DNA of 64,000 nucleotides, taken from an uncultured Gaiellales bacterium. GTDB lineage: Bacteria; Actinomycetota; Thermoleophilia; BMS3ABIN01. Shown here piece after piece: positions 573-32,352 of the stretch (position 1 is the first letter of the stretch; the number at the start of each line of letters is the position of its first letter). The notes under the pieces were generated by a model. The model worked only from the letters and a program-made list of their open reading frames with translations. It made no database searches and was not told the DNA's origin. Where the stretch lies: assembly GCA_964497425.1 (NCBI GenBank), contig CAZCCR010000006.1, forward strand, positions 13,306 through 77,305. Direction: 5' to 3'. A program made the translations under genes and the position numbers.

Positions 573-1994
573 TCAGCCATGGCCGCCGTGTGGTAGCCAC
601 ACGGAGACATCAGGCCATTGACGGCTTGAACACACATTTCGGTAACCGCTCTCCAGCTCCGGCGCCAGTATCTGCAGGGACGCGCGGTCGGCTTCGAACA
701 CAGCCACCGGCGGCCGGCTGCCGGCCATGGCGGACCTGATGCTTTCGAAAAGCCCGATCGCGTCCGGGTCGCCGCGTCCGTATTTCTCTTCCCAGAGGAA
801 CTGGTCGTAGAAGTCCCGCATGACCGGGCGCTCCGCCTCGACAGCGTAGCAGCCCGGCGCCAGTATCTCCTGGCCTTCCCTGCTCTCGTTCCCGATGATG
901 GAGACTATCCTCGTCACGTCAGCAGCGTTGCTGCGTGTGATGAAGACGCGGTCCTTTGCCAGCATCGTCACTATGCCGCCCAGGAGCAGGATCGCCGCCG
1001 CTGCAACGGGCAACAGCTTTCCCTTGCCCGCAAGGCCGATCACTCCCCAGGCGGCCAGCAGGGCCATCGCCGGTTCGGCCAGCTGGAAAAGGTTGGTATC
1101 GTGTCCGGCTGCGGGGAGGGTCAACAGCAGAGAGAGCCCGGCGCCGAGCCAGGCGAACAGCAGGAAGAGATGATCCGGCCGCCGGCGAAAGCGCAGCTCT
1201 TCCGCTGCCAGCCAGGCTCCGGGCAGCGCCGCCAGGATCAGCGGCCAGTCCATGCTCCAGATTCGCCTGACGCCGCCGGTGAAGTTGGCCAGGCTCAACC
1301 CCTTGCTCGCCTGGGCGGCGAAGATATCGCTGAAATAGGCTCCACTGGAAGCGAACTGGGCAGCGAGCGCCGCCGCCAGGGAACCGCCGACAGCCACGCG
1401 GAGGAACAGCGCCAGATGCTCTCTCCGGTACCTGTGGACGAACAGGATCAGGAGCAGCAGCAGGGGGATGAAAGTCAGTTTGGTGAGGCTGCCGAGGACG
1501 CAGAGCCCTCCGGCAAGGGCCACCCGCCTGCGGCTGTTTTCCAGCAACAGCATGATGACCGCGACCGTGATCAGGGCAACCAGGGCGTCCTGGATGAACA
1601 GCTTGGAGAAGTAGATACCCAGGGGGGCGAACAGGGTGAACGCCCCAGCCAGGAAGGCACAGCCCACGTTCCTGCTGAGCCGGTATGCCAGGCGCCAGAC
1701 GGCCAGGCCCAGTCCGGCCATGACCAGGATGCTGAAGACGCGGAAGGGCAGAACGCCGTCGCCGATGAGAGCCAGCGGCGCTCCCAGGAAGTAGAGAAGG
1801 GGCGGATGGGCGGCGAGGAAATCACGGTATGGCCAGATACCACGGGAGATCGCTCTCGCTGAAGCCATATAGGCGCTATCGGCGGCGTCCAGGCAGCTGT
1901 GGTCGATGCCGGACAGGTTCAGAAGCAGGAAAAGGCCGAGCAGGAAGAGGAAGGCGAGAAGATAGTGGCGGGAAAGACCGGTGGAGTCCCTCAT
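573..1994 (-). CDS. Polytopic membrane glycosyltransferase, GT39/ArnT-PMT-like
   Basis: About 11-12 hydrophobic segments; N-terminal loop DSAYM...PYRDFLAAHPPLLY; TKLT motif; soluble C-terminal domain. Confidence 0.7.
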   Translation of the reverse strand: MRDSTGLSRHYLLAFLFLLGLFLLLNLSGIDHSCLDAADSAYMASARAISRGIWPYRDFLAAHPPLLYFLGAPLALIGDGVLPFRVFSILVMAGLGLAVWRLAYRLSRNVGCAFLAGAFTLFAPLGIYFSKLFIQDALVALITVAVIMLLLENSRRRVALAGGLCVLGSLTKLTFIPLLLLLILFVHRYRREHLALFLRVAVGGSLAAALAAQFASSGAYFSDIFAAQASKGLSLANFTGGVRRIWSMDWPLILAALPGAWLAAEELRFRRRPDHLFLLFAWLGAGLSLLLTLPAAGHDTNLFQLAEPAMALLAAWGVIGLAGKGKLLPVAAAAILLLGGIVTMLAKDRVFITRSNAADVTRIVSIIGNESREGQEILAPGCYAVEAERPVMRDFYDQFLWEEKYGRGDPDAIGLFESIRSAMAGSRPPVAVFEADRASLQILAPELESGYRNVCSSRQWPDVSVWLPHGGHG

Positions 1995-2668
1995 CCGGAG
2001 AGACAGCCGGCTGCTTCCTCCGTCTCTTTCAGCCGCCCGTGACAGAGGGTCACCGGGGCGGGGGCCGGCGCCGGACGCTTTATCCTCTCCAGCAGGCCGC
2101 GGCGGCGGAGCCGCCGCGGCGGTTCAGCCAGCTTGAGGCCGCCCAGTTCCAGGCGCATCAGCTGTATCTCGCCCGCGGAACGGGCGGGATAAAATCCGCA
2201 TCGTCTCAGCAGCTCCCGGTCGAGAAGGTGGCCGGGGTTGTCTCTGCTACCGTCTCTGAGGCAAAAGGCTTCCACGGTGCCGATGCCGCGCCCGCGCAGG
2301 TCAGCCAGTGCCGCCAGGACAAGGCCTTTGCGGATGGGTTCATTGGCAGGAGCGGTCACCATGCCGCAGGCAAGCAGGATGTTGTCCTCTGCGCTCTGCC
2401 CGGGACACAGTTCCCCGCTGCGGGGGAAGAGCCACGACGGACCGTACTGCACCAGTCCCAGCGGCTCGCCGTCAGCCAGGGCTATCCTGCCCCAGCCGCC
2501 GAAAGAATCCTCGGCCTGCCGCCTCCAGCCGGACTCCTGTTCTTCCCCGGGCCACCCTCGGGTATACCCTTGCCACCAGCCACAGGAGCGGCAGTCTTCG
2601 GGGACCAGTTCCAGGGTCGTCAGGTCCAGGTTTTGCATGCGGAAGACCATACGATGATTATAGCTCAT
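1991..2668 (-). CDS. GNAT-family N-acetyltransferase (Rv3916c-like actinobacterial family)
   Basis: CRSCGWW...FGGWGRIALADGEPLGLVQYGP...ALADLRGRGIGTVEAF matches the family pattern. Start is probably ATG 2668 or 2650 rather than the track's 2788. Overlaps the GT39 start by 4 bp. Confidence 0.7.
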   Translation of the reverse strand: MSYNHRMVFRMQNLDLTTLELVPEDCRSCGWWQGYTRGWPGEEQESGWRRQAEDSFGGWGRIALADGEPLGLVQYGPSWLFPRSGELCPGQSAEDNILLACGMVTAPANEPIRKGLVLAALADLRGRGIGTVEAFCLRDGSRDNPGHLLDRELLRRCGFYPARSAGEIQLMRLELGGLKLAEPPRRLRRRGLLERIKRPAPAPAPVTLCHGRLKETEEAAGCLSG

Positions 2669-2699
2669 GCCGGAACGGCGATGCATCATATGACAGTGC

Positions 2700-3551
2700 T
2701 CAACCCGGAACGAGCTCGAGCAGGGTGACTTCGGGGCGGCTGAGCAGCCTGAGAGGGACGAAGGTGGTGCCGACTCCCCGGGAGACATGCATCAATGTTC
2801 CCCCGTGTTGGTATAAACCGTAACGGTAACTGGAGCCTGAGGAGGAGAGCAGTATCCTTCCCTTCCAGGGGTGGGGCATACATATCTGTCCACCATGGGT
2901 ATGTCCGGACAGCACCAGATGGAACTCACCCGGCCTGATCTGCGAGATGACGTCGGGTGAGTGGGACAGGAGTATGCGCAGACCGGCGCTGCTGTCCAGC
3001 CGCTCCCTGACAGCCGCCATATCAGCCAGTCCGTATTCCAGCTCGTCGATGCCGCAGACCTGCAGGCGGTCCCCGTCCCGCTCGACGCCGGCGCACTCGT
3101 TCTCCAGCAGCGTGATACCGGCATGGCCGAGCAGGTCACGGTTGAGGGAGACCGTAGCGGCCACCTCGTCCGCCCCCATGTCGGCGTTGCGAGCGATCCT
3201 CTGGCCGATGAGCCCGAAACTGAACTCATGCAGGGCGTTCTTGCGCAGGCCGTGGTCGTGGTTGCCCAGTACGGCGAACTTTCCCAGGGGGGCCCTGATG
3301 TGCGAAAGCATCTCCAGGCACGGTTCCAGGGCCTTCTTCTTGTCGGTCATATCGCCAGTGAACAGGACCAGATCCGGGGCCGTCTCCCTGGCTAACGGTT
3401 CCAGCTTGGCGATGGCCAGCTCGTTGGGCCAGGGGGAGCCGGTGTGCAGGTCACTGACGTGAAGCAGCCTCAGGCCCGCCAGCGCCAGCGGCAACCCAGG
3501 CAGCGTCAGCTTCAGGTGGCGGAGCTGTAACCACTGGGCTTCGAAAAGCAT
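2700..3551 (-). CDS. Calcineurin-like metallophosphoesterase (YkuE/YaeI type)
   Basis: Motifs SDLH, TGD, LGNHD, LSH and SGHTHGGQ. The in-frame hydrophobic stretch upstream suggests a true start near 3596. Confidence 0.9.
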   Translation of the reverse strand: MLFEAQWLQLRHLKLTLPGLPLALAGLRLLHVSDLHTGSPWPNELAIAKLEPLARETAPDLVLFTGDMTDKKKALEPCLEMLSHIRAPLGKFAVLGNHDHGLRKNALHEFSFGLIGQRIARNADMGADEVAATVSLNRDLLGHAGITLLENECAGVERDGDRLQVCGIDELEYGLADMAAVRERLDSSAGLRILLSHSPDVISQIRPGEFHLVLSGHTHGGQICMPHPWKGRILLSSSGSSYRYGLYQHGGTLMHVSRGVGTTFVPLRLLSRPEVTLLELVPG

Positions 3552-3615
3552 GTAGGCCGAGGCGAGGGCAGAGGCGCCCAGGGTAAGCCTCAGCAGCCGC
3601 GCCGCCGAGTGGCAG

Positions 3616-3942
3616 CTACTCTTCTTCCCCGTCTTCGTCTTCGCCCTCTTCGCTCTCTTGCTTCTCTTCTTTGCCCGTGTCCTCTTCCTGCCGGGCCTCT
3701 ATCTCAGCCTTGAGCCGCGCGCTGGTCTCCTCTATCCGGGCCTTCAGTTCCTCTTCAGAGCCCAGTTCCTCTTCCTGCCGGAGACCGCTCTGCGTACCCG
3801 GCTCTCCTGTCACATCCATGGAGCCTCCGAACAGCTCCTGCCTTATGTCGCGGCCCGCTTTGGGCGCCAGGAGCATGCCCGCGCCGATACCCAAACCTAC
3901 GCCGAACATGAAAAGACCGCATCTTCCGCATCTGGCCATCAT
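3616..3942 (-). CDS. YtxH domain-containing protein
   Basis: GLGIGAGMLLAPKAGRDIRQEL is the YtxH signature; acidic coiled-coil tail. Confidence 0.8.
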   Translation of the reverse strand: MMARCGRCGLFMFGVGLGIGAGMLLAPKAGRDIRQELFGGSMDVTGEPGTQSGLRQEEELGSEEELKARIEETSARLKAEIEARQEEDTGKEEKQESEEGEDEDGEEE

Positions 3943-4024: not shown

Positions 4025-4735
4025 TCAGTAAGTGTTCTCACTGTCGACATACCAGCCGTACTGGTCCTTGTACATGTAGAGCTCCGTATACCATGTCTGG
4101 TCGCCGTAATAGGTGATGAGGACGATGGCGCTCATGTCGTCCGGGTTATAGGAGGCCACATCATAGCTGTCCCCACCCCCGTAAAGCGGGTCAGACATCA
4201 CTACATCGAGTATGGCGGCCTTCTCCGCCTCGGCGCTTCCCGCTGCCGGCGCAGGGTTCTGGGCGGGTGCGGGGGTCTGCGCCCGGCCCTGCCCTTGTGG
4301 AGCGGCCTGCTGGTTTGTCGCTGACGTGCGGGTGGTTGGGGTGGTGGGGGTGGTGGCAGTTGTCCGCGTGGTTGATGTGGCGGTCCTGCTGCTTGCGGTG
4401 CCGGTCTTGCTGCTGCCTCCCGCCGATGACGCCGCTGAGCCGCCGCCGTCGTCCCTGAAGATGAACCAGGCGCCGATGGCGATGGCGGCGATGACGATGA
4501 TGGCGGCCACGTTGGCGCCGATGATGACAGCCGGGTTGCTGAAGGGACCCTTGCTTTTCGGCGCCTCTCCAGTGCCGGGTGTGGCGCCGGCGCCTGCCGC
4601 CGTCACCTGGGTAGGCGCCTCTGTTCCCTCAGCAGCCTGTCCCCCTCTCTCTCGCCCCGGGACGGTGGCGCCGCAGGAGGCGCAGAACTTCGAATCCGGT
4701 TCCAGCTCGTTGCCGCATTCCTGACAGTAAGCCAT
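4025..4735 (-). CDS. Zinc-ribbon membrane protein (N-terminal CxxC-x10-CxxC, one TM helix, Thr/Ala linker, small external domain)
   Basis: MAYCQECGNELEPDSKFCASCG; TM segment VIIGANVAAIIVIAAIAIGAWFIF; GGAG-type RBS upstream. Confidence 0.8.
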   Translation of the reverse strand: MAYCQECGNELEPDSKFCASCGATVPGRERGGQAAEGTEAPTQVTAAGAGATPGTGEAPKSKGPFSNPAVIIGANVAAIIVIAAIAIGAWFIFRDDGGGSAASSAGGSSKTGTASSRTATSTTRTTATTPTTPTTRTSATNQQAAPQGQGRAQTPAPAQNPAPAAGSAEAEKAAILDVVMSDPLYGGGDSYDVASYNPDDMSAIVLITYYGDQTWYTELYMYKDQYGWYVDSENTY

Positions 4736-4774
4736 GATGATCTCCGTTGGTCGTTCAGATTCCGATGACTATGA

Positions 4775-6043
4775 TTATGACCCGCTGGCGGCCGTGCCGC
4801 AATGGCGGCAGAAGGCGGCTCCGGGGCTCAGTTCCTTGCCGCAGTTCCGGCAGAAGCGGGGGGGTGCGCCGGCAGCGCGTCCTTCCGTCTCCTGCGAGGG
4901 GGTAGCCGCGGCGCCCTCTTCAGCGGTCCTTGCGGCAGCACCGGCTGTTGCTGCTTTCAGCTGCTCGATGATGGTGTCGGTATCCTGCTGGCGGGTTGCC
5001 GCCGCACCTTCGCCGGCTGCCTCTTCCCCCGCCGCCAGCACTGTTTCCAGCAGTCCCCTCGCCAGCTCCGGGCTCAGGGCCGTCAGGTTCGCCTCTCCTT
5101 CAGGCAGGGAACTCACGTCCGCCAGCCAGATGCCGCCGGACGTGCGCCAGCCGCCGAGGATGGCCGCCTCCACCTTGTCCGGCCCCAGCCGCCTCTGAAC
5201 CGCCATGCCGAAGTTGGTGCCCGCTGCTGCCAGGGAGCGGTAGAGCATGTCGAGCCCTTCGCCGATGACATACATGTCGCCCATCGGCTCCGCCTCCTCA
5301 TCTTCCAGCACCGCCAGCAGACCCTCATCGGCCATTCGCCGCATCACTTCCGGCAGGCGCCTGTCGAAATCCGCGGGGACGGCGTCGGGGTTCAGCATGG
5401 CGAAAAGGGTCACCGACCATGAAGGATCGGCTCCCCCCAGCCCCGCCAGCCAGGCCTTCACGGCATCGGCGGCCGTCAGCCCCGATGGCGGGCCCGGCAG
5501 CCGCGAAAGCCGGCGCCGGGCCGAGTCACTGACATAGGCATCTACCAGGGCCGCCAGGGCGAAGAACTCATCGTTGTCCAGAGTCAGCCTCACCTCGGCG
5601 GCGGCAGCGGCGCTGTCAAGGGAGAGTGCTTCCAGGAGGCTCTGCCTGACCTCGTCCAGTGACAGCGGCCCCTGGACAGCCAGGGCGCCCTCACCGAGGT
5701 CGAGACGGAAGCCCGGTCCTCGGGCGGCGGGGTCGGGCCAGAGGTACTGGCCGAGCATTGTGGTCTCACCATCTCCCAGCACCAGCATGGCTGTGAGCCC
5801 CGGGTCCATCATCGCCGGCGGCAGCTGCCGCCAGTCTCCGGACAGGCCCGCCAGTAACGCCAGCAGCCCATTCCGGTCGGACTCCTCCGGTGGGGACTGG
5901 ATGCGGGTCAGGGGGGAAAGCGGACCGGCGGCGACCTCCGGCAACTCTCCCAGGGCTTTCAGGGCCCTGAGCGGGATGGAGACCCCTTCCGCCGCTTCTG
6001 TTTCATCCTGTGTGATGTCAGACATGACGCCTTCCTTTCCCAT
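4775..6043 (-). CDS. Hypothetical cytoplasmic protein with C-terminal zinc ribbon
   Basis: Ends FCRNCGKELSPGAAFCRHCG. Acidic ~330-aa body with no recognised motif. Start at 6043 or 6025. Confidence 0.75.
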   Translation of the reverse strand: MGKEGVMSDITQDETEAAEGVSIPLRALKALGELPEVAAGPLSPLTRIQSPPEESDRNGLLALLAGLSGDWRQLPPAMMDPGLTAMLVLGDGETTMLGQYLWPDPAARGPGFRLDLGEGALAVQGPLSLDEVRQSLLEALSLDSAAAAAEVRLTLDNDEFFALAALVDAYVSDSARRRLSRLPGPPSGLTAADAVKAWLAGLGGADPSWSVTLFAMLNPDAVPADFDRRLPEVMRRMADEGLLAVLEDEEAEPMGDMYVIGEGLDMLYRSLAAAGTNFGMAVQRRLGPDKVEAAILGGWRTSGGIWLADVSSLPEGEANLTALSPELARGLLETVLAAGEEAAGEGAAATRQQDTDTIIEQLKAATAGAAARTAEEGAAATPSQETEGRAAGAPPRFCRNCGKELSPGAAFCRHCGTAASGS

Positions 6044-6073
6044 GTTCTTCTGTGCCCGGGCGGCGATCGCGTA

Positions 6074-9000
6074 TCATTTCGGCTTCGCTATCTTCAGGCT
6101 CTCGATCTTCTTGCCCAGCAGTTCGGATACCTGTGCCGGGCCGCCCTTGAAACCCAGCTGCCTGACCCGGGCGGCGCGCTCCAGTGGTGAGAGGTCGTTG
6201 TCACCGATGACCTTCAGTGCCTGCTTCATCTTGGGGGAGAGATCGCTGACCTGGTAGTTCTTCTGATATCCCTTGATCAGCGCCTCCGTCTCCCGTCCCT
6301 GTTTGGACAGCTGTTCCAGGGCCTCCTTCTGGTCGGAGATGGTGCCCTTGTTCCATTGGCTGGTGAACTTCTCCTTCTCCATCATACCCAGCTGCTCAGC
6401 GTCCCCCAGCCGGCCTTCGCCCTTCTTGGCTGCGGCATGGGTCGAATCCCCGCCGACCTCTCCGGCGCCGCTACCGCCCTGCTTGAAATCGCGGCCGGCG
6501 GTGGGCTGGTAGACGTCACCCGGCTCCTGCTGGTGCAGTTCGCCCCACTTGCGGGTCTGCTGCTGAGGCGTCATGCTGTCCCAGTCCACGTCGCTGAAGC
6601 GCTGCTTGGCCTTTTCGACGCTGAACCCGGAATGTTCGGCGAAAGAATCGTGGTAGGTCTGCTCCCACTCGCTCTTGGGGACCTCCTCCCAGGAGACGCT
6701 GCCGTCGGAGTGGGTCACCTTGCGCAGGGCGTGGATGTCGTTGTCCGTGTTGATGCCGGCCGGGTCATACTTCTTGCCGGGGGTGCGCACGCTCTCCACC
6801 CGGAACTCCTCGCCGGGGTGCTTCTTTCCCAGGAACGACTCCACATCCTGGTTGGTCGGCTCCAGGATCTTCTTCTGGGTCTCGATGAAGCTCTTGCGCA
6901 CGTTCTCCGGAGCGTTCTTCAGCTTGCGCATGGCGGCGGGGTCGGACATGTTGTCCAGGGCCTGGTCGACGCTAGGTTCCTTGCCGCTCTCGACGGTGCT
7001 GGTGATGTCGTCGGCTTTCTTCTGGGCGTCATCCATATACTTCTTGTAATCGGACTCGTAGGACTGCCGCTGCTCGGGGTCGTTGAAGCGCTGCTCGTCG
7101 CGGGCGCGGGCGGCGTCGCCCTTGGCCTGCTCGGCCCGGCGGGCGGCGCTCTTCTCCGCTTCGGCCGCCCTGGCCTCGGCTCCCGCCTCCGCGGCCTCAG
7201 GCTGCGTCTTTCCTCGCGTGGCTCCCGCCTCCGTTTCGCTGCTCGCGGCGCCCGCCTTCGGCTTTCCGGCAGACGCGGCTGCCTCCGATTCCGCCGTCCC
7301 CGCCTCCGCGGCGCCCTCGGCCGCACCCTCGGCAGCCGGGATCTCTGCCCCCTCGGCAGCTGCGCCCTCAGCCGCCTGCCCGGCCCGGGCCGCCTGGCCG
7401 GCGGCGGCCCCTTCCGTCTCAGTGGCGGCGGAAGCTCCCGCCTCCGCGGCACCCTCTACTGCCGCGCCCTCCCCGGCGGCGGTGCCGGCAGAGGGGATGA
7501 AGGTGCGGGTGCCGGTGAAGGGGACGCGCGTGGTGGAGACATTAATGCCAAGTGAATCCAGGATGAGAGCTATCCCGGCCATCTTGGTGGCGGCGGAGGG
7601 GATGGACCAGAGCTTCTCCTCCGTGGAGGCGTTCTTGTCGAACCAGGAGTGGACCTCATCCACCGGCAATATGTCCTTGCCCGCTCCCTTTGCTTTCTGA
7701 AACAGGCTGCCCAGGATCGCTCCCGCCCCCTTCATGGAAGAGGCCACCATCACCTTCAGCCCTCCCAGGAAATCCTTGTTGTCGAAGGCCTTCCTGAATT
7801 CCTGTTTCTCCGTCGTCAGGTTGCGGTCCGACCATTTGTTGATGGAATCATCCAGGCCGCGCTTGAAATCCTTGAAGTTCTTGATGCCATAGTAGATGCC
7901 CTTGGCGCCCCTGAATGGGGCGAGGATCATGTGCCCCATACCGGAGAAGAAGCCCGTTACGCCCTGCTTGGTCTTGCTCAGGACATCAGCGGTGGTCTTG
8001 GCGGCCGCCCTGATGTTTGCCGCCTCCATGGAGGTGGAGCCGGGCTTGCCGGCTTTGGCGGCTATCTCCTTGCGCAGCTCCTTCTGGACGGCGGCCCATT
8101 TCTGCGGATCCACATTGCCGTCAGGGCCGAAGGCCTCCTTGCGGGCCTGGTTGACCAGGGCCTCCAGCTTCCTGTTTCCGTGACGCCGGGCATGCTTGTC
8201 CAGCATGTCGAGGGTCTTACGGGCATGGCCGGTGGCGGCGTCCAGACCCGCCACCGCCGCTCGCCGTCTTCTGGCCCGGCGCCGCTTCCGTTCCTTCTCC
8301 TTGTCCTTCTTTGGCTTATCTGAGCCGGGCTCCTTCCTGTCAGAATCGTCAGGCTCGGGTTCTTCCGGCGGCGGCCCGGGCTCGGGAGCTCCACCCAGAC
8401 CAGCTATCAATCCGATGATGATGGAGATGATGCCCGGGGCAAGGATGCCGGTCATGGCCTCCCACCAGTTGGCCGGGCCGGGGATCTTGCCCAAAGGACC
8501 AAGGCCGGGCAGGGCGCCTCCGGTCCCGCCGCCCTCTTTCCCTCCGGTCCCGCCGCCGCTGTCGCCCTCACCCTGGCCTCCTTGTCCACCCCCACTTGCC
8601 TCGAATGTGGCTGTAGTGGAACCACCAGCGGCGGATTCATCCGGGGTATCCGATTCAGTGATGGAGCCATTCCAGTAGAAGTCGGTGTATTCGACGACCT
8701 TGCCGGTGAACTCTACCGTCGCCGATGTGCTCGTGACCAGACCCTTCGAGGCGAAGGTCCCGCTTGCCCTGTATTTCGTGGGGACATAGCCGTCACGAAC
8801 ATTCTCTCTGCCGGAGGTCAGATCCGACTGGAAAGACCACTCACCGCTCAGATTGCCGTCTTTATAGGTGCCTGATACCTTCAGGGTGCCGTGGAAGTTG
8901 CCGACGAAGACCTCCCCGTTGGAGTATTGGGTTGTAAGGTTGGTCAACTGGAAGTCACTTGATGTCTCGCCGGAGAAGCTGCCCATCGTCAGCTTCATGG

Positions 9001-9262
9001 CTGGCAGGTTGCCGAGCAGATCCAGGCCGTCCGTATCGTTACCCGTGTAAAGGCTGTCGAACCTGACCGTGGAAGGAGCTTCCAGAGGCTCTTTTTCCTG
9101 CGCATGTGAGGAGGCTGGTGTCATCAGGGCGAAAAGAAACACAAGGATGGAGAGCGCGACAAGAAACCTGCATAGACCGGCCCCGGCCGATGCGCTTCCG
9201 TTCCGGGGCCCGCACACCGCTGTTTCGTATCTGTGGTTTCTTTTCTTCATCAGGCTGGACAT
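6074..9262 (-). CDS. 1062-aa multidomain membrane-anchored protein, polymorphic-toxin-like architecture
   Basis: Signal peptide (cleavage near SSHA|QEK), beta-rich domain, Gly linker, TM helix TGILAPGIISIIIGLIAGLG, Pro/acidic then basic segment, helical region, Ala/Glu/Gly repeats, ~350-aa globular C-terminus. The ORF is well supported; the function is inferred. Confidence 0.75.
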   Translation of the reverse strand: MSSLMKKRNHRYETAVCGPRNGSASAGAGLCRFLVALSILVFLFALMTPASSHAQEKEPLEAPSTVRFDSLYTGNDTDGLDLLGNLPAMKLTMGSFSGETSSDFQLTNLTTQYSNGEVFVGNFHGTLKVSGTYKDGNLSGEWSFQSDLTSGRENVRDGYVPTKYRASGTFASKGLVTSTSATVEFTGKVVEYTDFYWNGSITESDTPDESAAGGSTTATFEASGGGQGGQGEGDSGGGTGGKEGGGTGGALPGLGPLGKIPGPANWWEAMTGILAPGIISIIIGLIAGLGGAPEPGPPPEEPEPDDSDRKEPGSDKPKKDKEKERKRRRARRRRAAVAGLDAATGHARKTLDMLDKHARRHGNRKLEALVNQARKEAFGPDGNVDPQKWAAVQKELRKEIAAKAGKPGSTSMEAANIRAAAKTTADVLSKTKQGVTGFFSGMGHMILAPFRGAKGIYYGIKNFKDFKRGLDDSINKWSDRNLTTEKQEFRKAFDNKDFLGGLKVMVASSMKGAGAILGSLFQKAKGAGKDILPVDEVHSWFDKNASTEEKLWSIPSAATKMAGIALILDSLGINVSTTRVPFTGTRTFIPSAGTAAGEGAAVEGAAEAGASAATETEGAAAGQAARAGQAAEGAAAEGAEIPAAEGAAEGAAEAGTAESEAAASAGKPKAGAASSETEAGATRGKTQPEAAEAGAEARAAEAEKSAARRAEQAKGDAARARDEQRFNDPEQRQSYESDYKKYMDDAQKKADDITSTVESGKEPSVDQALDNMSDPAAMRKLKNAPENVRKSFIETQKKILEPTNQDVESFLGKKHPGEEFRVESVRTPGKKYDPAGINTDNDIHALRKVTHSDGSVSWEEVPKSEWEQTYHDSFAEHSGFSVEKAKQRFSDVDWDSMTPQQQTRKWGELHQQEPGDVYQPTAGRDFKQGGSGAGEVGGDSTHAAAKKGEGRLGDAEQLGMMEKEKFTSQWNKGTISDQKEALEQLSKQGRETEALIKGYQKNYQVSDLSPKMKQALKVIGDNDLSPLERAARVRQLGFKGGPAQVSELLGKKIESLKIAKPK
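7190..7480 (-). repeat. Low-complexity Ala/Glu/Gly repeats (EGAA/AEAG units) inside the 1062-aa protein
   Basis: AGEGAAVEGAAEAGASAATETEGAAAG...AAEGAAEGAAEAG. Confidence 0.7.
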
Positions 9263-9284
9263 GTCCCTGTCGTCAAGGCTCCGC

Positions 9285-9794
9285 TCACCCCACCCACGCC
9301 CGTGCCGCCAGGCTCAGCGCCATCCAGGCGCCCACCAGGGCGAAAGCGCCGACGCTGGGCAACAGTCCACTGACAAAACCGAGCTTGCCTCTGCCGGGGG
9401 TGCCCGCGCCCTCTCTGTCCCCCTGCGCCATGCCGGCGCCGATGGCGGCCCCGGAGGTCATAATGCCGGCGGAGGCGAAGACCTGCGCCGCGTTCCACTC
9501 CAGGGCCAGTTCGGAGAGCAGAGCAAGCAGCGTGAAAGGCACCAGCATCAGGAAGCCGGTGTTCACCGCCCGGTCGATGCCGGCCAGGCCGCGGCCGGAG
9601 CGGGCGGGGCCGTCGAAGGAATATACCAGGCTGTCGATCAGCAACGAGCCGACGATGGAGAGGGCGACTGCCCCCAAGGCCCCCGCGGCGATGACCGCTG
9701 GGCCGTCGGAGACATGGCGGGCTGTCAACGCGCCCAGTACGCCGAAGCAGCAGTACTTGACCATGCCGGTGAAGAGCCAGTAGCCGTCCATCAT
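9285..9794 (-). CDS. Hypothetical 4-TM membrane protein
   Basis: Four hydrophobic segments. ATG at 9794 overlaps the upstream stop as ATGA (translational coupling). Confidence 0.75.
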   Translation of the reverse strand: MMDGYWLFTGMVKYCCFGVLGALTARHVSDGPAVIAAGALGAVALSIVGSLLIDSLVYSFDGPARSGRGLAGIDRAVNTGFLMLVPFTLLALLSELALEWNAAQVFASAGIMTSGAAIGAGMAQGDREGAGTPGRGKLGFVSGLLPSVGAFALVGAWMALSLAARAWVG

Positions 9795-10387
9795 CCACCC
9801 ACCAGTATGCTCAGCAGCCACCAGCCATAGAGCAGCAGGCCGCCGCTGAAGGTGGCAAGGACGATGCTCGTGCCCATCCTCTGTCCGGTCATCTCACGGA
9901 TGGTGGATACCATCGGGCCCAGGGCCCAGAGCATGCCGGTGACGCCGAAGGCGACAGCGGTATTCAGGCCGAAGGCAAGGTTGGCCACGAGCCCGAAGGA
10001 AGCATAGATGAGGGAAGGGCTGTAGCCCAGGGCGAAGGCCTTGATGGACCAGCCCAGGGTTTTCTCACACCCGAACAGCTGCGACTGCAGCCAGGCCAGG
10101 GTGGCGATGAGGCTGACGGCCGCGGTGCCGTAGGTGGCGCCTGCTACCACCAGGATGTAGGCGGTGCTTTGAGGGCTGCCGTTGCGGGACAGGTCCAGGC
10201 CGGTCTGGAGGAAGAAGAGGGTGAAGGCCAGGCCGGAGATGGAGAGGGCCAGCACCGGGGAGACGGCAGCCATCCGGCGCTTCAGTACTGCGGCGGGGTT
10301 TATCATCATGATCATGGCCGCCCGCAGGCCGCCACCGGCTGCCGCCGTTGCCGCCGCCCCTGCCTTTTCCCGTTCAATTGCAGACAT
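9791..10387 (-). CDS. Yip1-domain membrane protein
   Basis: Five TM helices; IKAFALGYSPSL...AFGVTGMLWALG pattern typical of Yip1/DUF1282 proteins. Start probably ATG 10387. Confidence 0.7.
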   Translation of the reverse strand: MSAIEREKAGAAATAAAGGGLRAAMIMMINPAAVLKRRMAAVSPVLALSISGLAFTLFFLQTGLDLSRNGSPQSTAYILVVAGATYGTAAVSLIATLAWLQSQLFGCEKTLGWSIKAFALGYSPSLIYASFGLVANLAFGLNTAVAFGVTGMLWALGPMVSTIREMTGQRMGTSIVLATFSGGLLLYGWWLLSILVGG

Positions 10388-10814
10388 CTTCGGGTAGCTC
10401 ACCTGCCGCCGGGGGAGAACGCTTTCCAACTGCCTCACAAGCCGCGGGGCTGTCATCGATAACGGCATCGGGGACCGGCCCTCGCCGGGTAACCTGGTTG
10501 CGGTCCCCAGGCAGACATCGGTCTCCGGTCCCCGGGGGTTCGCATGAGCAATGGCGGTTCGCGGCCTTTGCCGCGCCCAGGCCTTTTCCGTGGCTCTGAT
10601 ATTAAACTACCACACGAAAAGCCGGCTGTATATGCCGGCCCTTATCGCATCCCGCCGCGCCCGTCACAGTCACTCCGCCCGGCGCGCTCCCGTGCCCGGA
10701 ACTATCCTGCACGTGCCCGGGCATGATATGAGAACGCAGGTGCGGGTATATACAGAGACATGAAAAGGGTGTCAGGCAAGGGGAATGTCCACCCGGGGAA
10801 GGAGTTGCAACGAT

Positions 10815-11015
10815 ATGGCAGAAAAGAAGATAAGCGGTGAGATGGTGATAAACGAGGCCATCAGGCTCTATCCCTGGACGCTGCCCGTCTTCCACCGCTA
10901 CGAAGTGGATTCCTGCTGCGGCGGGGCCAATACCATCGCCGCCGCCGCGCGTATGCAGGGGCTGGACCTGGACACCCTGCTGGCGGAGCTGGAAGAGGCC
11001 GCCGCCGGTGGATGA
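10815..11015 (+). CDS. Stand-alone DUF542/ScdA-N domain protein
   Basis: YPWTLPVFHRYEVDSCCGGANTIAAAARMQGLDLDTLLAEL, with the DxCCGG signature. AGGAG RBS precedes ATG 10815. Confidence 0.85.
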   Translation: MAEKKISGEMVINEAIRLYPWTLPVFHRYEVDSCCGGANTIAAAARMQGLDLDTLLAELEEAAAGG

Positions 11016-11246
11016 TGTTCCGGCAAGAGGCGCCGGCAGCTCGAACGATAATTGATCACGGTCATGCGAATCGCTCAGGTGCTTCATGAAGTCGTCATTC
11101 CGATCAAAGCGAAGAACCTGCTTTTTTTACGTAAAAGCAGAGCTATTGTCGCGCTTCCCGGGATGTCGGGTGCATGGGCCGGTTGAATGATCGTTCAATA
11201 GATCAAACATGCCGCCCGACCGGGCGGCGACATGGAAAGGAGTGAG

Positions 11247-11801
11247 ATGGTAGCCTGGATCATCGTGATAGCCGTGGTGGCGGTGCTGGCCATCGCCCTC
11301 ATCGGCATCTACAACAGCCTTGTGAGGGCACGCAACAAGGTGGACAACGCATGGAAGCAGATCGACGTGCAGCTGAAACGGCGCTACGACCTCATCCCCA
11401 ACCTGGTGGAGATGGTCAAGGACTACATGTCCTACGAACAGGAGGTGCTGGAGAACGTCACCAAGGCCCGCGCAGCAGCCATGAGCGCCCAGGGCCCGAA
11501 AGAGCAGGGGCAGGCGGAGAACTTCCTCAGCGAGACCCTCAAGTCGCTCTTCGCCGTATCAGAGAACTACCCGGAGCTCAAGGCCAACCAGAACGTGATG
11601 AGCCTGCAGGAGGAGCTGACCTCCACGGAGAACAAGATATCCTTCGCGCGGCAGCTATACAACGATGTGGTCATGGCCTACAACAACGCCATCCAGACGG
11701 TGCCCCGCAACGTCATCGCCGGCGCCTTCGGTTTCAGGGAGCGGGAATACTTCGAGATCCCTGAAGGCGAGACCGAGCCGGTGGCGGTGGACCTGCGCTA
11801 G
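11247..11801 (+). CDS. lemA: LemA family protein
   Basis: N-terminal TM; [20 protein letters not shown]; ENYPELKAN; AAAGGAG RBS before ATG 11247. Confidence 0.95.
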
Positions 11802-11829
11802 CAGCGCGGTTGTGAAGGCTCCCGGATAG

Positions 11830-12750
11830 ATGTACGAACAGATATCAAGGAACAAGCGGCTGTCGTACCTTCTGATCGTGGTCGTGGCAGCCCTGCTGCT
11901 GATACTGGGCTTTGCCATCGGCTATGCCACCGGCTTCGGCTATTTCGGGGTCATTTTCGCCGCCGCCGTGGCGGTGGTCATGGGCCTCACCAGCTACTAC
12001 AAGGGCGATCGCATGGTCCTTGCCGCCAGCCACGCCCGGCGCGTCACCCATGACGATGAGCCTCAGCTGTTCAACGTGGTGGAGGAGATGGCTATCGCCT
12101 CGGGCAACCCCATGCCCGTGGTCTATGTCATCCCCGATTCCGCCCCCAACGCCTTCGCCACCGGCAGGGACCCGGAGCATGCCTCCATCGCCGTGACCCA
12201 GGGCCTGATGGACAAGCTCAACCGCGAGGAGCTCCAGGGGGTGATCGGCCACGAGATGTCCCACGTGCGCAACTACGACATCCTCTACGCGACGCTGGTG
12301 GGGATACTGGTGGGGGCCATCGTGCTCATGGCCGACTTCTTCCTGCGCTGGGGGTTCTGGACCGGGGGCGGGCGGCGGGGCCGTAGCAGCAGCAGCGGCG
12401 GCGGGTATTTCCAGATCATCATGCTGGTGGTGGCCATCGTGGCGGCCATCCTGGCGCCGCTGGCGGCGCGGGCGGTGCAGATGGCCATCTCGCGCCGGCG
12501 CGAGTACCTGGCGGACGCCTCCTCCGTTGAACTCACCCGCAACCCGCTGGGGCTGGCCAGCGCCCTGGAGAAGATCGACCGGGACCAGGAGGTGCTGGAG
12601 GTGGCCAACCGCGCCACCGCCCACCTCTACATCGCCAACCCGGTGAAGAAGTTCGAGAAGAGGGCGAAGAGCGTCTTCAGCAGCCACCCGCCCATCCAAA
12701 TGCGCATCCAGGCGCTGAGGTCCATGGCCTCCATGCCCGCCCGGGGCTGA
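11830..12750 (+). CDS. htpX: M48 zinc metalloprotease HtpX
   Basis: PNAFATGR, GHEMSH (HExxH), SRRREYLAD, FSSHPP; canonical lemA-htpX pair. Confidence 0.93.
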   Translation: MYEQISRNKRLSYLLIVVVAALLLILGFAIGYATGFGYFGVIFAAAVAVVMGLTSYYKGDRMVLAASHARRVTHDDEPQLFNVVEEMAIASGNPMPVVYVIPDSAPNAFATGRDPEHASIAVTQGLMDKLNREELQGVIGHEMSHVRNYDILYATLVGILVGAIVLMADFFLRWGFWTGGGRRGRSSSSGGGYFQIIMLVVAIVAAILAPLAARAVQMAISRRREYLADASSVELTRNPLGLASALEKIDRDQEVLEVANRATAHLYIANPVKKFEKRAKSVFSSHPPIQMRIQALRSMASMPARG

Positions 12751-13021: not shown

Positions 13022-13687
13022 TTGAGCAATCACCGGGGATATATCGAAGAAGAGGGGGCGGCGCCGGATACGACAGGCGCAGTGGCGTCCATGCCGGACC
13101 ACGAGCTGGTGGGTATGGTGCTGGACAGCGCCGATGGATCCCTTGCCGTCGAGAGCATCTCCCGCAGTATCTTCTCCCGTTTCTCCGGCCGTTCACTCTC
13201 GCCCGTATCCCCCGACGAACTCTGCTCCGCCTGCGGCCTTTCCCTCGCAATGGCCGCCCGGCTTTCGGCGGCGATAGAGCTGGCCAGACGCCTGCTGCTG
13301 CCCGATGAGGGCAGGGGCCCTGTCCGTTCCCCCCGCGACGCCTGCCGGTTCGTCTCACGCATCCGCGGGGAGCAGAAGGAGCATTTCATCGCCCTCTGTC
13401 TCAACGCGCGCAACATGGTCATCCACGAAGAGACCGTATCCATCGGCAGCCTCAACGCCAACATCGTGCATCCCCGCGAGGTCTTCCGGCCGGCCATAGC
13501 CCATTCGGCGGCGGCGGTGGTGCTGGCCCATAACCATCCCTCCGGCGATGTCTCTCCCAGCCAGGAAGACCTGCGCCTTACCAGCAGGATGGTGGAGGCG
13601 GGCAGGGTCATCGGCATCGAGGTCCTGGACCACATCATCGTCTCCAGGAGCTCATATCTCAGCTTCAGGAGCGAATCCTACCTGTAA
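13022..13687 (+). CDS. radC: RadC/JAB-domain protein
   Basis: KEHFIALCLN, GSLNANIVHPREVF, AHNHPSGD, IEVLDHIIV. N-terminus divergent and start uncertain. Confidence 0.9.
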   Translation: MSNHRGYIEEEGAAPDTTGAVASMPDHELVGMVLDSADGSLAVESISRSIFSRFSGRSLSPVSPDELCSACGLSLAMAARLSAAIELARRLLLPDEGRGPVRSPRDACRFVSRIRGEQKEHFIALCLNARNMVIHEETVSIGSLNANIVHPREVFRPAIAHSAAAVVLAHNHPSGDVSPSQEDLRLTSRMVEAGRVIGIEVLDHIIVSRSSYLSFRSESYL

Positions 13688-13726
13688 ACAGGGCGGTCGC
13701 GCCAAAGATGATTCCCCGCTCATGTT

Positions 13727-13962
13727 TGTGGAAAACCTTTTTTCTGTCTCAAGCTGGGCCGAATGCCACGGGTCTGTAACCGGGACTCAACAGGAAATCA
13801 CCCATACCAGGCTGATACTGGTTGAAAATACCTGTTTTTGCAGGCACATCATCCATAGATAGTCTTCCCGACTTTCTTTGTAGGATTTGGATGGGCCCAT
13901 CCCGCCCCGGGGCGCTCCCTCGCCCATCCCCCCCGGAATCGCGGTTTTCCACATTATCCACA
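13727..13962. promoter_or_regulatory. DnaA boxes upstream of rpmH
   Basis: TGTGGAAAA at 13727-13735 (1 mismatch, reverse); tandem TTTTCCACA at 13945-13953 and perfect TTATCCACA at 13954-13962; weaker TCATCCATA at 13849-13857. Confidence 0.7.
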
Positions 13963-14031
13963 ATCGTTTGCCGGCCCAAAAGCGACTCCGGAGCGGCGGA
14001 AACGGCATGGGAAACCACGGAAAGGCGCAAT

Positions 14032-14061
14032 TTGACTTGATTTGACGGCTGTATGTATAAT
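14032..14061 (+). promoter_or_regulatory. Sigma70-type promoter of the rpmH operon
   Basis: TTGACT-N18-TATAAT, 31 bp upstream of the rpmH start. Confidence 0.75.
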
Positions 14062-14092
14062 TTCAGGTCGGTTTACCGAAAAGGGAGAGACC

Positions 14093-14227
14093 TTGAAGCG
14101 GACCTATCAGCCGAACAAAAGGAAGAGGAAGAAGGCTCACGGCTTTCGCAAGCGCGCCAGCACCAGGGCGGGGCGCCGGGTATTGAAGAGGCGGCGGGCA
14201 AAGGGGAGAAAGACCCTGTCCGCATAG
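14093..14227 (+). CDS. rpmH: 50S ribosomal protein L34
   Basis: TTG start; (M)[43 protein letters not shown], 44 aa. Confidence 0.97.
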
Positions 14228-14242
14228 GAATCACCGGTTCCT

Positions 14243-14611
14243 GTGAATAAAAAACACCGACTCAGCCGGTCTGCCGATTTCGAACGGGTCTACCGTCACG
14301 GCAAGTCTGTTGCGGGTCGTTACGCGGTACTGTATTATTTCGACCGGCCGGGGAACGAGTCCCGGGGCGAACCACGCCTGGGGGTCTCGGTGTCGAAGAA
14401 AGTAGGGGGAGCCGTCGTCAGGAACCGGGTGAAGCGGACCGTTAAAGAGGTGTTCCGCCGGCACCAGGACGCGATGGCTCCCGGTTACGATTATGTGATC
14501 ATCGCCCGCACGGGGCTTGCTGAATACATAGAGAAGAGCAGGTTCGAGGAGGTGTCCGGAATGATCGAAGGGCTCTTCCGGCGGGCTGACCTAATCCAGG
14601 AAGCAGACTGA
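14243..14611 (+). CDS. rnpA: Ribonuclease P protein component
   Basis: RLSRSADFERVYRHG; RLGVSVSKKVGGAVVRNRVKR (RNR motif). Confidence 0.95.
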   Translation: MNKKHRLSRSADFERVYRHGKSVAGRYAVLYYFDRPGNESRGEPRLGVSVSKKVGGAVVRNRVKRTVKEVFRRHQDAMAPGYDYVIIARTGLAEYIEKSRFEEVSGMIEGLFRRADLIQEAD

Positions 14612-14612
14612 A

Positions 14613-14831
14613 TTGAGACGGATACCCATCTTTTTCATCGGCCTCTACCAGAGGCTGGTATCGCCGCTGTTCCCGAGACGCTGCAAGTATTACCCCAGCT
14701 GTTCCAGCTACGCCGTGGAGGCCATCCGAGAGTGGGGGCTGCTCCGTGGCGGCGCCATGTCCCTGTGGCGGCTGCTGAGATGCAACCCGTTCTCCCACGG
14801 CGGCTTTGACCCGGTCAGGAAACGCTCCTGA
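14613..14831 (+). CDS. yidD: Membrane protein insertion efficiency factor
   Basis: YQRLVSP...CKYYPSCSSYAVEAI...LLRCNPFSHGGFDPV. Confidence 0.95.
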   Translation: MRRIPIFFIGLYQRLVSPLFPRRCKYYPSCSSYAVEAIREWGLLRGGAMSLWRLLRCNPFSHGGFDPVRKRS

Positions 14832-15745
14832 TGACCAACGCGCTCTCATTCCTCATCGATCCCCTGCGGGCGATCCTCGAGTGGATCCACGCGACCATGG
14901 GCATCTCCTGGGGATGGTCCATAGTCGTCCTCACCATCATGGTCCGCGTCGTACTCATCCCCCTGGGGGTGAAGCAGTATACATCCATGCGGGCGATGCA
15001 GAAGCTGCAGCCCAGGATCAAGGAGCTGCAGAAGAAATACAAGGGCGACAAGCAGAAGCTCAACGAAGAGACCATGAAGTTCTACCGGGAGAACAAGGTC
15101 AACCCCTTCGGCTCCTGCCTGCCGCTGCTGTTGCAGATGCCGCTGTTCATCGCCCTGTATTACATGCTGAGGAACCATCCCTTCGAGTCGGATTATTCCT
15201 GGCTCTGGATATCCAACATCAACGACCCGGACAAGATCATCGTCTTCCTCTACATCGGTTCCCAGTTCCTGTCCAGCAGACTTCTCAGCACTGCCACGGA
15301 CAAGACACAGCAGATGATGATGACTGTGATGCCGCTGATGTTCGGCGTCATCTTTCTCATCTATCCCTTCCCCGCCGGTGTACTCATCTACTGGGTGACC
15401 ACCAACGTATGGACAGTCGGCCAGCAGCTGGTGACCCGCCGCATCGTCGAATCCCGGGAGGTCGCTGGCGGCGTGGTGGAGCCGGCCGAGGACCCACAGG
15501 CCGGTGAGGGGAAAAGAAAGAAGGCGTCAGCCGGCAAAGGCAAGTCATCCAAACAGGCGGAGCAGGGCAGGAAGCCAAAAGGCAGGAAACCACAGGGCAG
15601 GAAGCCGGCGGGAAAGAAGGCGCGGGCGGCGAAACCCCGGGAAAACAGGCCTCAGGGAAAGAGATCGGGTAAGAAGAGGACCGGAGGCCCGAAGAGCGGA
15701 GGCAAAGGTGGAGGAAAATCAGGTTCAAAGAAACAGCGCCGGTGA
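14831..15745 (+). CDS. yidC: YidC/Oxa1 membrane insertase with a long basic C-terminal tail
   Basis: WGWSIVVLTIMVR, KLQPRIKELQKKYK, NPFGSCLPLLLQMP, PAGVLIYWVTTN; operon position. Confidence 0.95.
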   Translation: MTNALSFLIDPLRAILEWIHATMGISWGWSIVVLTIMVRVVLIPLGVKQYTSMRAMQKLQPRIKELQKKYKGDKQKLNEETMKFYRENKVNPFGSCLPLLLQMPLFIALYYMLRNHPFESDYSWLWISNINDPDKIIVFLYIGSQFLSSRLLSTATDKTQQMMMTVMPLMFGVIFLIYPFPAGVLIYWVTTNVWTVGQQLVTRRIVESREVAGGVVEPAEDPQAGEGKRKKASAGKGKSSKQAEQGRKPKGRKPQGRKPAGKKARAAKPRENRPQGKRSGKKRTGGPKSGGKGGGKSGSKKQRR

Positions 15746-32275: not shown

Positions 32276-32352
32276 TGGCGCCCCGGGAAGGATTCGAACC
32301 TTCGACCTACCGCTTAGGAGGCGGTCGCTCTGATCCCCTGAGCTACCGGGGC
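32276..32352 (-). tRNA. tRNA-Arg (anticodon CCT)
   Basis: Minus strand GCCCCGGTAGCTCAGGGGATCAGAGCGACCGCCT-CCT-AAGCGGTAGGTCGAAGGTTCGAATCCTTCCCGGGGCGCCA: 7-bp acceptor stem, TTCGAA T-loop, encoded CCA, 77 nt. Confidence 0.96.

Follow-up and report, generated by a model that had tools for sequence, protein, structure and literature searches.

The 64,000-nucleotide (nt) stretch of DNA analysed here (henceforth the window), from contig CAZCCR010000006.1 of an uncultured Gaiellales bacterium, carries on its minus strand, from position 10387 to 4025, five co-oriented genes encoding a Yip1-like membrane protein, a small protein with four transmembrane (TM) segments (4-TM), a giant protein and two zinc-ribbon proteins. 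Four of these genes (Yip1-like, 4-TM, giant and the first zinc-ribbon gene) are conserved as a unit, and the C-terminal end of the giant protein (henceforth the tip) differs from one relative to the next. Our proposal, in which we place about as much belief as doubt, is that the operon is the local copy of an undescribed membrane system built on an invariant trio of Yip1-like protein, 4-TM protein and giant carrier, with a tip that is somewhat likelier to act in cis than on other cells. A first-pass annotation, made from the sequence alone, had described an uncharacterised membrane operon with a polymorphic-toxin layout; the close spacing that it noted is confirmed, with an ATGA overlap between the first two genes and gaps of 22, 30 and 39 nt, in that order, after the 4-TM gene, and its interpretation as a whole is partly supported by what follows.

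The unity of the cluster is evident from its recurrence. A pattern-based scan of 185,579 species genomes with an alignment of the proteins closest to the C-terminal domain of the window's giant protein (henceforth C-dom), a procedure that undercounts, revealed at least 20 C-dom loci, and the family is rare and patchy. Bacillota loci were found in Syntrophomonas, Sporomusa ovata DSM 2662, Sporotomaculum syntrophicum, Desulfosporosinus, Pelotomaculum and Gelria, along with one actinobacterial locus in Schaalia suimastitidis. In every genome locus with enough upstream DNA (16 of 16), the genes stand in the order Yip1-like, 4-TM, giant and a zinc-ribbon gene of ~370 amino acids (aa), with E-values of ~1e-47 for the Yip1-like protein and ~1e-13 for the 4-TM protein (1e-6 in Schaalia) and giant proteins of 1640-2240 aa, and the same order is seen on contigs of closer relatives (P0002, P0007, P0010 and P0027). 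Family hidden Markov models (HMMs) in turn recognise the window's Yip1-like protein at E=3.7e-57 and its 4-TM protein at E=2.3e-19. Because this gene order recurs in dozens of unrelated contigs, the cluster is no chance arrangement. The expectation of the first-pass annotation that all five genes would be conserved elsewhere is thus borne out across phyla for genes 1-4 and fails for the fifth, which has no clear orthologue. Many Bacillota operons are extended by zinc-ribbon/TM proteins, a 420-aa membrane protein and a LemA and DUF2207 pair, and carry LuxR-type or helix-turn-helix (HTH) regulators upstream. Word-indexed protein searches with the full protein, the middle region or the domain profile came back near-empty, which reflects a limit of the index and is no sign of absence. 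Literature searches combining Yip1, LemA, DUF2207, zinc ribbon, polymorphic toxin and defence returned no description of such a system, and all homologues named by their sources are called 'hypothetical protein', in keeping with the earlier description of the operon as uncharacterised.

A central question is whether the tip is exchangeable. Since all homologues known up to that point had come via the C-terminal domain, we ran a reverse search in which metagenome contigs were scanned with the Yip1-like protein and the best 80 of 197 relatives were kept. Of the metagenome loci, 76 extend far enough past the Yip1-like gene to hold a 4-TM gene, and in all 76 it comes next. Thirty loci hold a complete giant open reading frame (ORF), and in all 30 products, irrespective of ectodomain and C-terminus, a signature G-x-[IVL]PGP precedes a TM helix rich in Gly and Pro. 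C-dom ends 16 of these 30 carriers (five in diverged form), and the remaining 14 end in seven other C-terminal classes, so that eight tip classes are told apart on the basis of these 30 complete metagenomic ORFs. The Yip1-seeded scan also led us to reject the view that the C-terminus is conserved and hence not polymorphic, which proved to be a sampling bias of the C-domain-seeded searches. With the HMM of the Bacillota carriers, homology extends from the N-terminus to a low-complexity spacer, and the sequences beyond the spacer are unrelated. The alternative tips are not artefacts, because several recur in independent assemblies: L070 and L072, from two different samples, encode identical carriers with a tip other than that of the window, and the carriers of L047 and L110 have equal length and the same downstream gene layout. 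The mid-domain of the L071 carrier is 72-75% identical to that of four C-dom carriers, which themselves are only 54-60% identical in this region to two other C-dom carriers; since the mid-domain of L071 nests among those of C-dom carriers, its tip has been replaced.

The replacement tip of L071 belongs, with those of L033 and L104, to a class that resembles the nucleotidyl cyclase toxins of the ExoY/CyaA/EF family. These tips match Pfam PF03497 at E=2.2e-4 and 21.7 bits, below the cut-off of 25, and a profile built from them matches Vibrio ExoY-like structures (7p1h, E=0.003; 8bjj, E=0.042). Two invariant Lys seven positions apart and an invariant D-x-D align with the Lys-rich and 'TADYDL' motifs of the solved enzymes, motifs which we take to be the catalytic Lys and Asp pairs of the family. 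The assignment is sub-threshold, though two independent libraries agree on the resemblance and the putative catalytic motifs are kept. The three loci of this class, and no others, share a homologous ORF of 257-303 aa inserted after the giant gene and ahead of the following gene, and a further class, class D (L052, L080 and L090), shares small downstream ORFs of its own. Neither class is likely to consist of diverged C-dom copies (hhalign probability <=0.2%). The tip of L051 shows a QCGEY...NHVA...D pattern, and a papain-like reading of it was unconfirmed by any tool; five alternative tip classes have no match in Pfam or the PDB. The first-pass annotation had predicted that the C-terminus and the next gene would vary, and we find eight tip classes with a next gene that co-varies in two of them, the window's own next gene not being tip-specific (see below). 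Judged from these comparisons, the polymorphic layout is real at the level of the family. Together, the swapping of tips, the class-specific downstream genes and the one toxin-like cyclase class form the signature of a biological-conflict system.

The giant protein of the window has the same architecture as its relatives (Table 1), and the features listed for it in the first-pass annotation are present: a signal peptide, a TM helix after PGP, a Pro/acidic and a poly-basic segment, a second hydrophobic patch, an Ala/Glu spacer and a globular C-terminus. Its N-terminal hydrophobic stretch spans aa 23-54, a feature shared by 14 relatives. The IPGP motif at aa 260-263 is followed immediately by the TM helix (aa 267-293), and P7, G8 and P9 of the PGP motif are invariant (alignment A4). 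The poly-basic cluster after the Pro/acidic stretch reads KKDKEKERKRRRARRRR. From the signal peptide, the single TM helix and the poly-basic cluster (positive-inside rule), everything after aa 293 is predicted to be cytoplasmic in the producing cell, and the pattern of signal peptide, one TM helix and basic cluster is repeated in the relatives. The hydrophobic patch at aa 550-572 was weighed as a further TM helix that would place the tip outside; we consider this unlikely because a conserved Lys lies inside the patch, and its hydrophobicity score is weak. AlphaFold2 modelled the TM and middle region poorly, as all-helical with a predicted local distance difference test (pLDDT) score of 54.7, and the model was set aside. 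In the comparison with the closest relative, identity is 72% over the C-terminal domain, 38% over the middle region and 32% over the ectodomain. The protein has only two Cys (aa 17 and 31) and none in the following 1031 residues, against a baseline of 0.88% over 27 other ORFs of the window, and its long relatives contain 0-0.3% Cys. Pfam has no match for it.

Ectodomain, linkers and tip all vary among relatives of the carrier, and the linkers reach ~1500 aa. In place of the window's Ala/Glu spacer, long Bacillota carriers (L017 4820-11017; L051 10991-16027; P0003 and P0011) have linkers in which (G-[YF]-[DN]-x-x) repeats take up hundreds of residues; the repeats match the Pfam 'Decapeptide repeat region' at E=5e-20 and the DotG/IcmE repeat region at E=2e-12. 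Homology of a Bacillota carrier to DotG/IcmE was rejected, since the (G-[YF]-[DN]-x-x)n repeats account for the match. The cyclase-tipped carrier of L033 (2737-6192) has an N-terminal prolipoprotein diacylglyceryl transferase domain (Lgt, PF01790, E=1e-35) in place of the plain signal peptide. At L024 (5775-6500), the ectodomain of a fifth-gene zinc-ribbon/TM protein is homologous to the carrier ectodomain of the window (8618-9100), with 27% identity over 169 aa and a weak E-value of 1e-4 in a search of seven ectodomain sequences; outward-facing modules thus seem to be shared between operon components.

The window's own tip, C-dom, was searched for exhaustively with HMMER, the last 348 residues serving as query (E<=1e-3), and this gave 165 representative clusters, mostly of large proteins with the domain at the C-terminus. 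An AlphaFold2 model from a 22-sequence alignment is confident (pLDDT 91.6; predicted template-modelling score, pTM, 0.87) and consists of a small sheet with long helices packed around it. The most conserved residues, R826-T-P-G829 and N838-T-D840-x-D842 (nt 6737-6787), sit in the loop that joins strands one and two, and D954, K965 and K987 are also invariant (alignment A1). The acidic loop and the Arg/Lys residues suggest a metal, phosphate or nucleotide site. Foldseek comparison of the model with the PDB found nothing similar (best E=0.12, template-modelling score <0.2), and the domain has no match in BFVD, in a PDB sequence-profile search or in Pfam (each of the 22 members scanned). Two candidate identities were set aside: a Pol-beta nucleotidyltransferase, proposed on a G-x9-DxD motif, because Foldseek against the PDB gave no nucleotidyltransferase, and an ExoY/CyaA/EF cyclase, because Pfam gave no match and hhalign against the cyclase-like class gave a probability of 0.2%. 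In a few long proteins C-dom is followed by >700 residues, and in ~11 proteins of 1000-1300 aa (for example P0088, P0092, P0096, P0108, P0113 and P0126) it is N-terminal, often directly after a hydrophobic segment. One locus with an N-terminal C-dom, at 10001-13030 of L027 (GCA_050251875.1, a Deferribacterales metagenome-assembled genome), has a TPR protein upstream and a 648-aa protein downstream, and no Yip1-like or 4-TM genes were found there. No second copy of C-dom was found in the loci examined.

The Yip1-like protein is the best-conserved component: orthologues from Bacillota, from Schaalia and from metagenome contigs are 43-64% identical to it, and among the 38 columns that never vary are polar residues within hydrophobic stretches (alignment A5), a pattern that suits an active membrane component. 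Its assignment to Yip1 in the first-pass annotation is not established: the alignment spans nearly the full Pfam Yip1 profile (PF04893, positions 22-173 of 173), at a score of 15.1 bits (E=0.022) that is below the cut-off of 28.6. The profile matches four of 17 orthologues at E<=0.1 (best E=1.7e-5), and we consider a distant relationship to Yip1 plausible, hence 'Yip1-like'. The hydrophobic segments of the 4-TM protein come from a hydropathy scan, and it has no match in Pfam or NCBIfam. The idea that it is a paralogue of the Yip1-like protein was dropped, because an HMM cross-match was unconfirmed by hhalign (probability 3.6%).

Both zinc-ribbon proteins named by the first-pass annotation pass the Pfam cut-off of Zn_Ribbon_1 (PF13240, 25 bits), the 422-aa protein with 32.5 bits (aa 397-417) and the 236-aa protein with 31.3 bits (aa 3-24), and the four ribbon Cys (CxxC...CxxC) are the sole Cys of each. 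Comparison by hhalign (probability 97.7%, E=1.9e-12, 234 columns) shows the 422-aa protein to be orthologous, though diverged, to the ~370-aa product of the gene that comes after the giant gene in Bacillota. This ~370-aa zinc-ribbon family (ZnR370) follows four tip classes, namely the window type, B2, the L047 type and, after the inserted ORF, the cyclase-like class. Because its family follows four tip classes, the 422-aa protein is not an immunity protein specific to one tip but a partner conserved in this family branch. Residues 124-176 of the 422-aa protein match ZorF (DUF2894, type III Zorya) in PADLOC at E=9.8e-4 over ~50 Ala/Leu-rich residues, probably by chance; this is the only defence-library match to a globular part of the system. 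Similarity of the 236-aa protein to its analogues at other loci is confined to the ribbon and the TM region, and the gene is absent even from the closest related contig (L032); the protein is an accessory component of a recurring kind.

Table 1. Positions of the operon genes, of the parts of their products and of two downstream genes in the window (aa numbering within each protein).
Feature	Position	Strand	Remarks
Yip1-like gene	10387->9791 (9791..10387)	-	198 aa; ORF open to 10468; alignment with orthologues (188-209 aa) begins only at the 10387 start
4-TM gene	9794->9285	-	169 aa; ATG overlaps the Yip1-like stop as ATGA
Giant protein gene	9262->6074	-	1062 aa; alternative start 9250
Giant single-pass carrier	6074..9262	-	Bacillota-homologue HMM E=1.6e-112, covering the pre-TM/TM segment and C-dom
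Signal peptide or N-terminal hydrophobic segment, aa 1-54, ending AHA|QE	9101..9262	-	Kyte-Doolittle scan
Variable ectodomain, aa 55-215	8618..9100	-	32% identity to closest relative P0002; unrecognisable in others
Family signature G-K-IPGP and Gly/Pro-rich TM helix, aa 259-293	8384..8488	-	30/30 complete carriers
Pro/acidic segment, then poly-basic cluster, aa 294-335	8258..8383	-	Read from the sequence
Helical middle region, aa 336-599	7466..8257	-	Conserved LPxEE...EEKLW(A/S)IPSA..K motif (alignment A4)
Weak hydrophobic patch, aa 550-572	7547-7615	-	Inside the middle region
Ala/Glu-rich low-complexity spacer, aa 600-719	7106..7465	-	Equivalent spacer in relatives is where carrier homology ends
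C-terminal domain (C-dom), aa 720-1062	6077..7105	-	Commonest of eight tips
Zinc-ribbon protein gene	6043->4775	-	422 aa, or 416 aa from start 6025
Cytoplasmic partner, 422 aa, C-terminal zinc ribbon	4775..6043; ribbon 4793-4855	-	Pfam Zn_Ribbon_1
Zinc-ribbon/TM protein gene (fifth)	4735->4025	-	236 aa
Fifth protein, 236 aa: zinc ribbon, TM, Thr/Pro-rich linker and small ectodomain	4025..4735; ribbon 4664-4729; TM 4445-4546	-	Zn_Ribbon_1
YtxH-like protein gene, Glu-rich tail	3616-3942	-	Downstream of operon
Metallophosphoesterase gene	2700-3551	-	Downstream of operon

The gene models agree with independent calls where these exist: gene callers placed the 4-TM gene identically on two public contigs with the same DNA. 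The alternative start 6025 of the 422-aa gene has the better ribosome-binding site (GGAAGG). The operon has a GC content of 0.64-0.68, the same as the rest of the window. Genes for RadC, rnpA, (yidD), yidC and jag/KhpB, the usual gene set near a replication origin, lie at 13030-16541, and because the rnpA/yidC/jag set adjoins the operon we place the window on the chromosome, close to the origin. A LemA gene and then a gene for an M48 (HtpX-like) peptidase lie divergently upstream (11232-12750, plus strand). A LemA and DUF2207 pair is also found inside or beside the operon in most Bacillota loci (LemA in 13 loci, DUF2207 in 12; L003-L020 and L031), and this recurring adjacency in differing arrangements may be no coincidence. 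The divergent intergenic DNA of ~350-430 nt (within 10469-11231) should hold the operon promoter; a sigma-70 consensus scan of it found no site. A 161-aa ORF at 10602-11087 on the minus strand is probably spurious, and in public annotations ~10815-11015 on the plus strand is occupied by a ScdA_N-like gene of 66 aa. Four further co-oriented genes lie downstream at 573-3942 (minus strand), the YtxH-like and metallophosphoesterase genes of Table 1 and genes for proteins of 225 and 473 aa that overlap by 4 nt and have no family match. All four are absent from the closest related contig L032, and a promoter-like site at 4006-3978 lies between the fifth gene and the YtxH-like gene. The sole Rfam match in the window is one tRNA gene (32279-32352, minus strand).

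Searches of Pfam, PADLOC-DB v2, NCBIfam and PHROGs gave no functional annotation for any operon protein. No relatives were found on viral contigs, and with PHROGs empty as well a prophage or viral origin of the operon was rejected. When the ORFs of the window were compared with all alternative tips and tip-linked genes, no match was found, so the window shows no orphan cassettes of either kind.

How might such a system work? We propose that the tip would be stored at the cytoplasmic face of the membrane, where the Yip1-like and 4-TM proteins would act on the conserved anchor, possibly processing or gating it when the ectodomain is engaged. The tip would then be released or activated and would act inside the producing cell, as the effector of a sensor-to-effector defence, in a suicide-type response or as a signalling output. 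A helix-breaking Pro-Gly within a TM helix is typical of intramembrane-cleavage substrates. A Pro-Gly sits in the conserved TM helix of the carrier and would suit such processing. We put action inside the cell slightly ahead of export because the topology prediction is strong and the operon is without an energy-coupling or known secretion component.

Several observations weigh against this proposal. The topology is a prediction, and we infer the function from sequence. No known protease, channel, transporter or motor motif was found in the Yip1-like or 4-TM protein. The structure, profile and Pfam searches described above found no similarity of C-dom to known toxins, and PADLOC-DB v2 returned chance-level matches only, to low-complexity or short stretches (best E ~4e-4 to 1e-3). 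As effectors go, C-dom also behaves unusually: it is the best-conserved part of the giant protein and the majority tip, it is kept across phyla without a tip-specific downstream gene, and in a few distant proteins it is internal or N-terminal. A further set of features, the 'immunity-like' genes linked to certain tips, the cyclase class, the Cys-free 1031 residues and the linkers of up to ~1500 aa, would fit an exported toxin better than an effector that acts at home.

The same features bear on the foremost alternative, the delivery of polymorphic toxins to other cells, which is a possibility that we take seriously and yet regard as on the unlikely side. The ectodomain would bind a target cell, the Yip1-like and 4-TM proteins would export or hand over the tethered toxin, directly or in vesicles, and the downstream gene would protect siblings. 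Such a role would account for the swapping of C-termini together with tip-linked downstream genes and for the variable ectodomain; the very long low-complexity linkers could give reach, and the strong depletion of Cys past the two N-terminal ones points the same way. The ExoY/CyaA/EF-like tip does so too, as this cyclase family is not known outside secreted toxins. The predicted topology, however, keeps the tip in the cytoplasm of the producer, and the one feature that might alter it, the second hydrophobic patch, is an unlikely TM helix given its conserved Lys. Moreover, no ATPase, known trafficking or pre-toxin domain or processing peptidase was found in the operon, the window's tip is of the conserved majority type with a neighbour gene that is not tip-specific, and the window holds no orphan tip or immunity cassettes. 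The polymorphic-toxin layout claimed by the first-pass annotation therefore stands at the level of the family and is weaker for the window itself, where the tip is of the majority type and predicted to be cytoplasmic and no trafficking domain was found. We think it improbable that the family represents a new toxin delivery route in Gram-positive (monoderm) bacteria, in which a Yip1-like/4-TM machine would recognise an internal xPGP and TM signal and export exchangeable tips or load them into vesicles, the ExoY-like cyclase and C-dom with its unmatched fold among them; such a route would be a secretion or handover mechanism without counterpart among the numbered secretion systems.

Quite improbable in our judgement is a housekeeping receptor or scaffold of the envelope, which would link the surface to a cytoplasmic partner or to signalling, its C-termini being alternative outputs (for example a receptor-type cyclase) rather than weapons. 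A variable sensor joined to a variable output is the usual architecture of receptors, and the setting of the operon has a housekeeping look: it is chromosomal and origin-proximal next to rnpA-yidC-jag, shows no signs of mobility, has a tip and partner that are conserved across phyla, and in Bacillota adjoins LuxR-type or HTH regulators and the envelope genes for LemA and DUF2207. A receptor of this kind sits poorly with the replacement of tips between close carriers, the extra genes linked to tips, the rare and patchy family and the single alternative tip that can be recognised, whose own family is not known outside toxins. That the five genes are unrelated neighbours and form no functional unit has next to no chance of being right: the fifth gene and the co-oriented genes downstream are not conserved with the rest and a promoter-like site follows the fifth gene, but the order of genes 1-4 is kept in dozens of loci across phyla, which contradicts this reading for those four, and the ATGA overlap and the gaps of 22-39 nt speak against it as well.

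The family joins a conflict-type evolutionary signature, with swappable effector domains and linked genes, to membrane components that are new to such a role: the Yip1-like and 4-TM proteins and an internal xPGP and TM anchor. If the operon does encode a conflict system, it would represent a new architecture in bacterial toxin or defence biology, and a bacterial Yip1-like protein would gain its first testable function. The family would then also bring new effector domains to light, one with a confidently predicted fold that is unmatched and one a putative bacterial membrane-tethered relative of the ExoY/CyaA/EF cyclases. Experiments are feasible because there are culturable carriers: Sporomusa ovata DSM 2662, Sporotomaculum syntrophicum FB and Schaalia suimastitidis DSM 15538.

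Known systems resemble the operon in part. Eukaryotic Yip1/Yif1 proteins (PF04893) are likewise small polytopic proteins, the profile can be aligned near full length and a second small membrane protein stands alongside. By contrast, the score is far below the cut-off with only four of 17 orthologues matching, homology between the Yip1-like and 4-TM proteins is unsupported (hhalign 3.6%), and function is not transferable from the eukaryotic proteins. With the ExoY/CyaA/EF cyclases, the tips of L033, L071 and L104 share weak matches, the spacing of the Lys pair (7) and the xDxD pair; the cyclase-like tip is not that of the window, however, whose domain is without similarity to it (hhalign <1%).

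The anchor of the carrier recalls cell-surface sorting. LPXTG/sortase and PEP-CTERM/exosortase systems pair C-terminal sorting signals with dedicated membrane enzymes. The carrier shares with LPXTG and PEP-CTERM signals the succession of a motif, a TM helix and a basic cluster (here aa 259-335), as well as co-conserved polytopic membrane proteins. It differs in that the signal has a mid-protein position, with ~770 residues after it, and in that the invariant columns of the membrane partners (alignment A5) lack the catalytic Cys, His and Arg residues of sortases and exosortases.

Membrane sensors offer another parallel. Anti-sigma factors are released by regulated intramembrane proteolysis. In Zorya, ZorAB operates with soluble effectors (bioRxiv 10.1101/2023.12.18.572097). 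Like these systems, the operon combines a conserved membrane core and a variable outward part with cytoplasmic effectors that vary by subtype. Unlike them, it has the effector fused to the sensor protein and Yip1-like and 4-TM proteins without known protease or motor motifs, and there is no sequence relationship beyond the chance-level PADLOC match of the 422-aa protein to ZorF.

The closest likeness is to polymorphic toxin systems, such as CdiA of contact-dependent inhibition (CDI), Rhs/WapA, the LXG toxins of the type VII secretion system (T7SS) and S8-PTS (PMC3482391; PMC9424270). S8-PTS (PMC9424270) is a different system from that of the window. As in these systems, a large multi-domain protein keeps its N-terminal part and exchanges its C-terminal domain; at least two classes have genes of their own directly downstream, and one tip weakly resembles a toxin family. 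In agreement with the first-pass annotation, which had seen no T7SS, CDI or Rhs hallmarks, Pfam and NCBIfam scans of the window proteins and seven relatives found none of the export or trafficking domains sought (type V secretion system/two-partner secretion, PAAR/VgrG, LXG/WXG100, RHS and others), and the trafficking, pre-toxin and processing domains of polymorphic toxins were likewise not found. The operon further differs from these systems in its invariant partners, the Yip1-like and 4-TM proteins, in the internal xPGP and TM anchor of its carrier and in the predicted cytoplasmic location of the tip; in addition, about half of the carriers share one cross-phylum tip, and in the window this tip is followed by a gene that is not specific to it. 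No described system fits as a home for the operon, yet its logic is that of a polymorphic effector.

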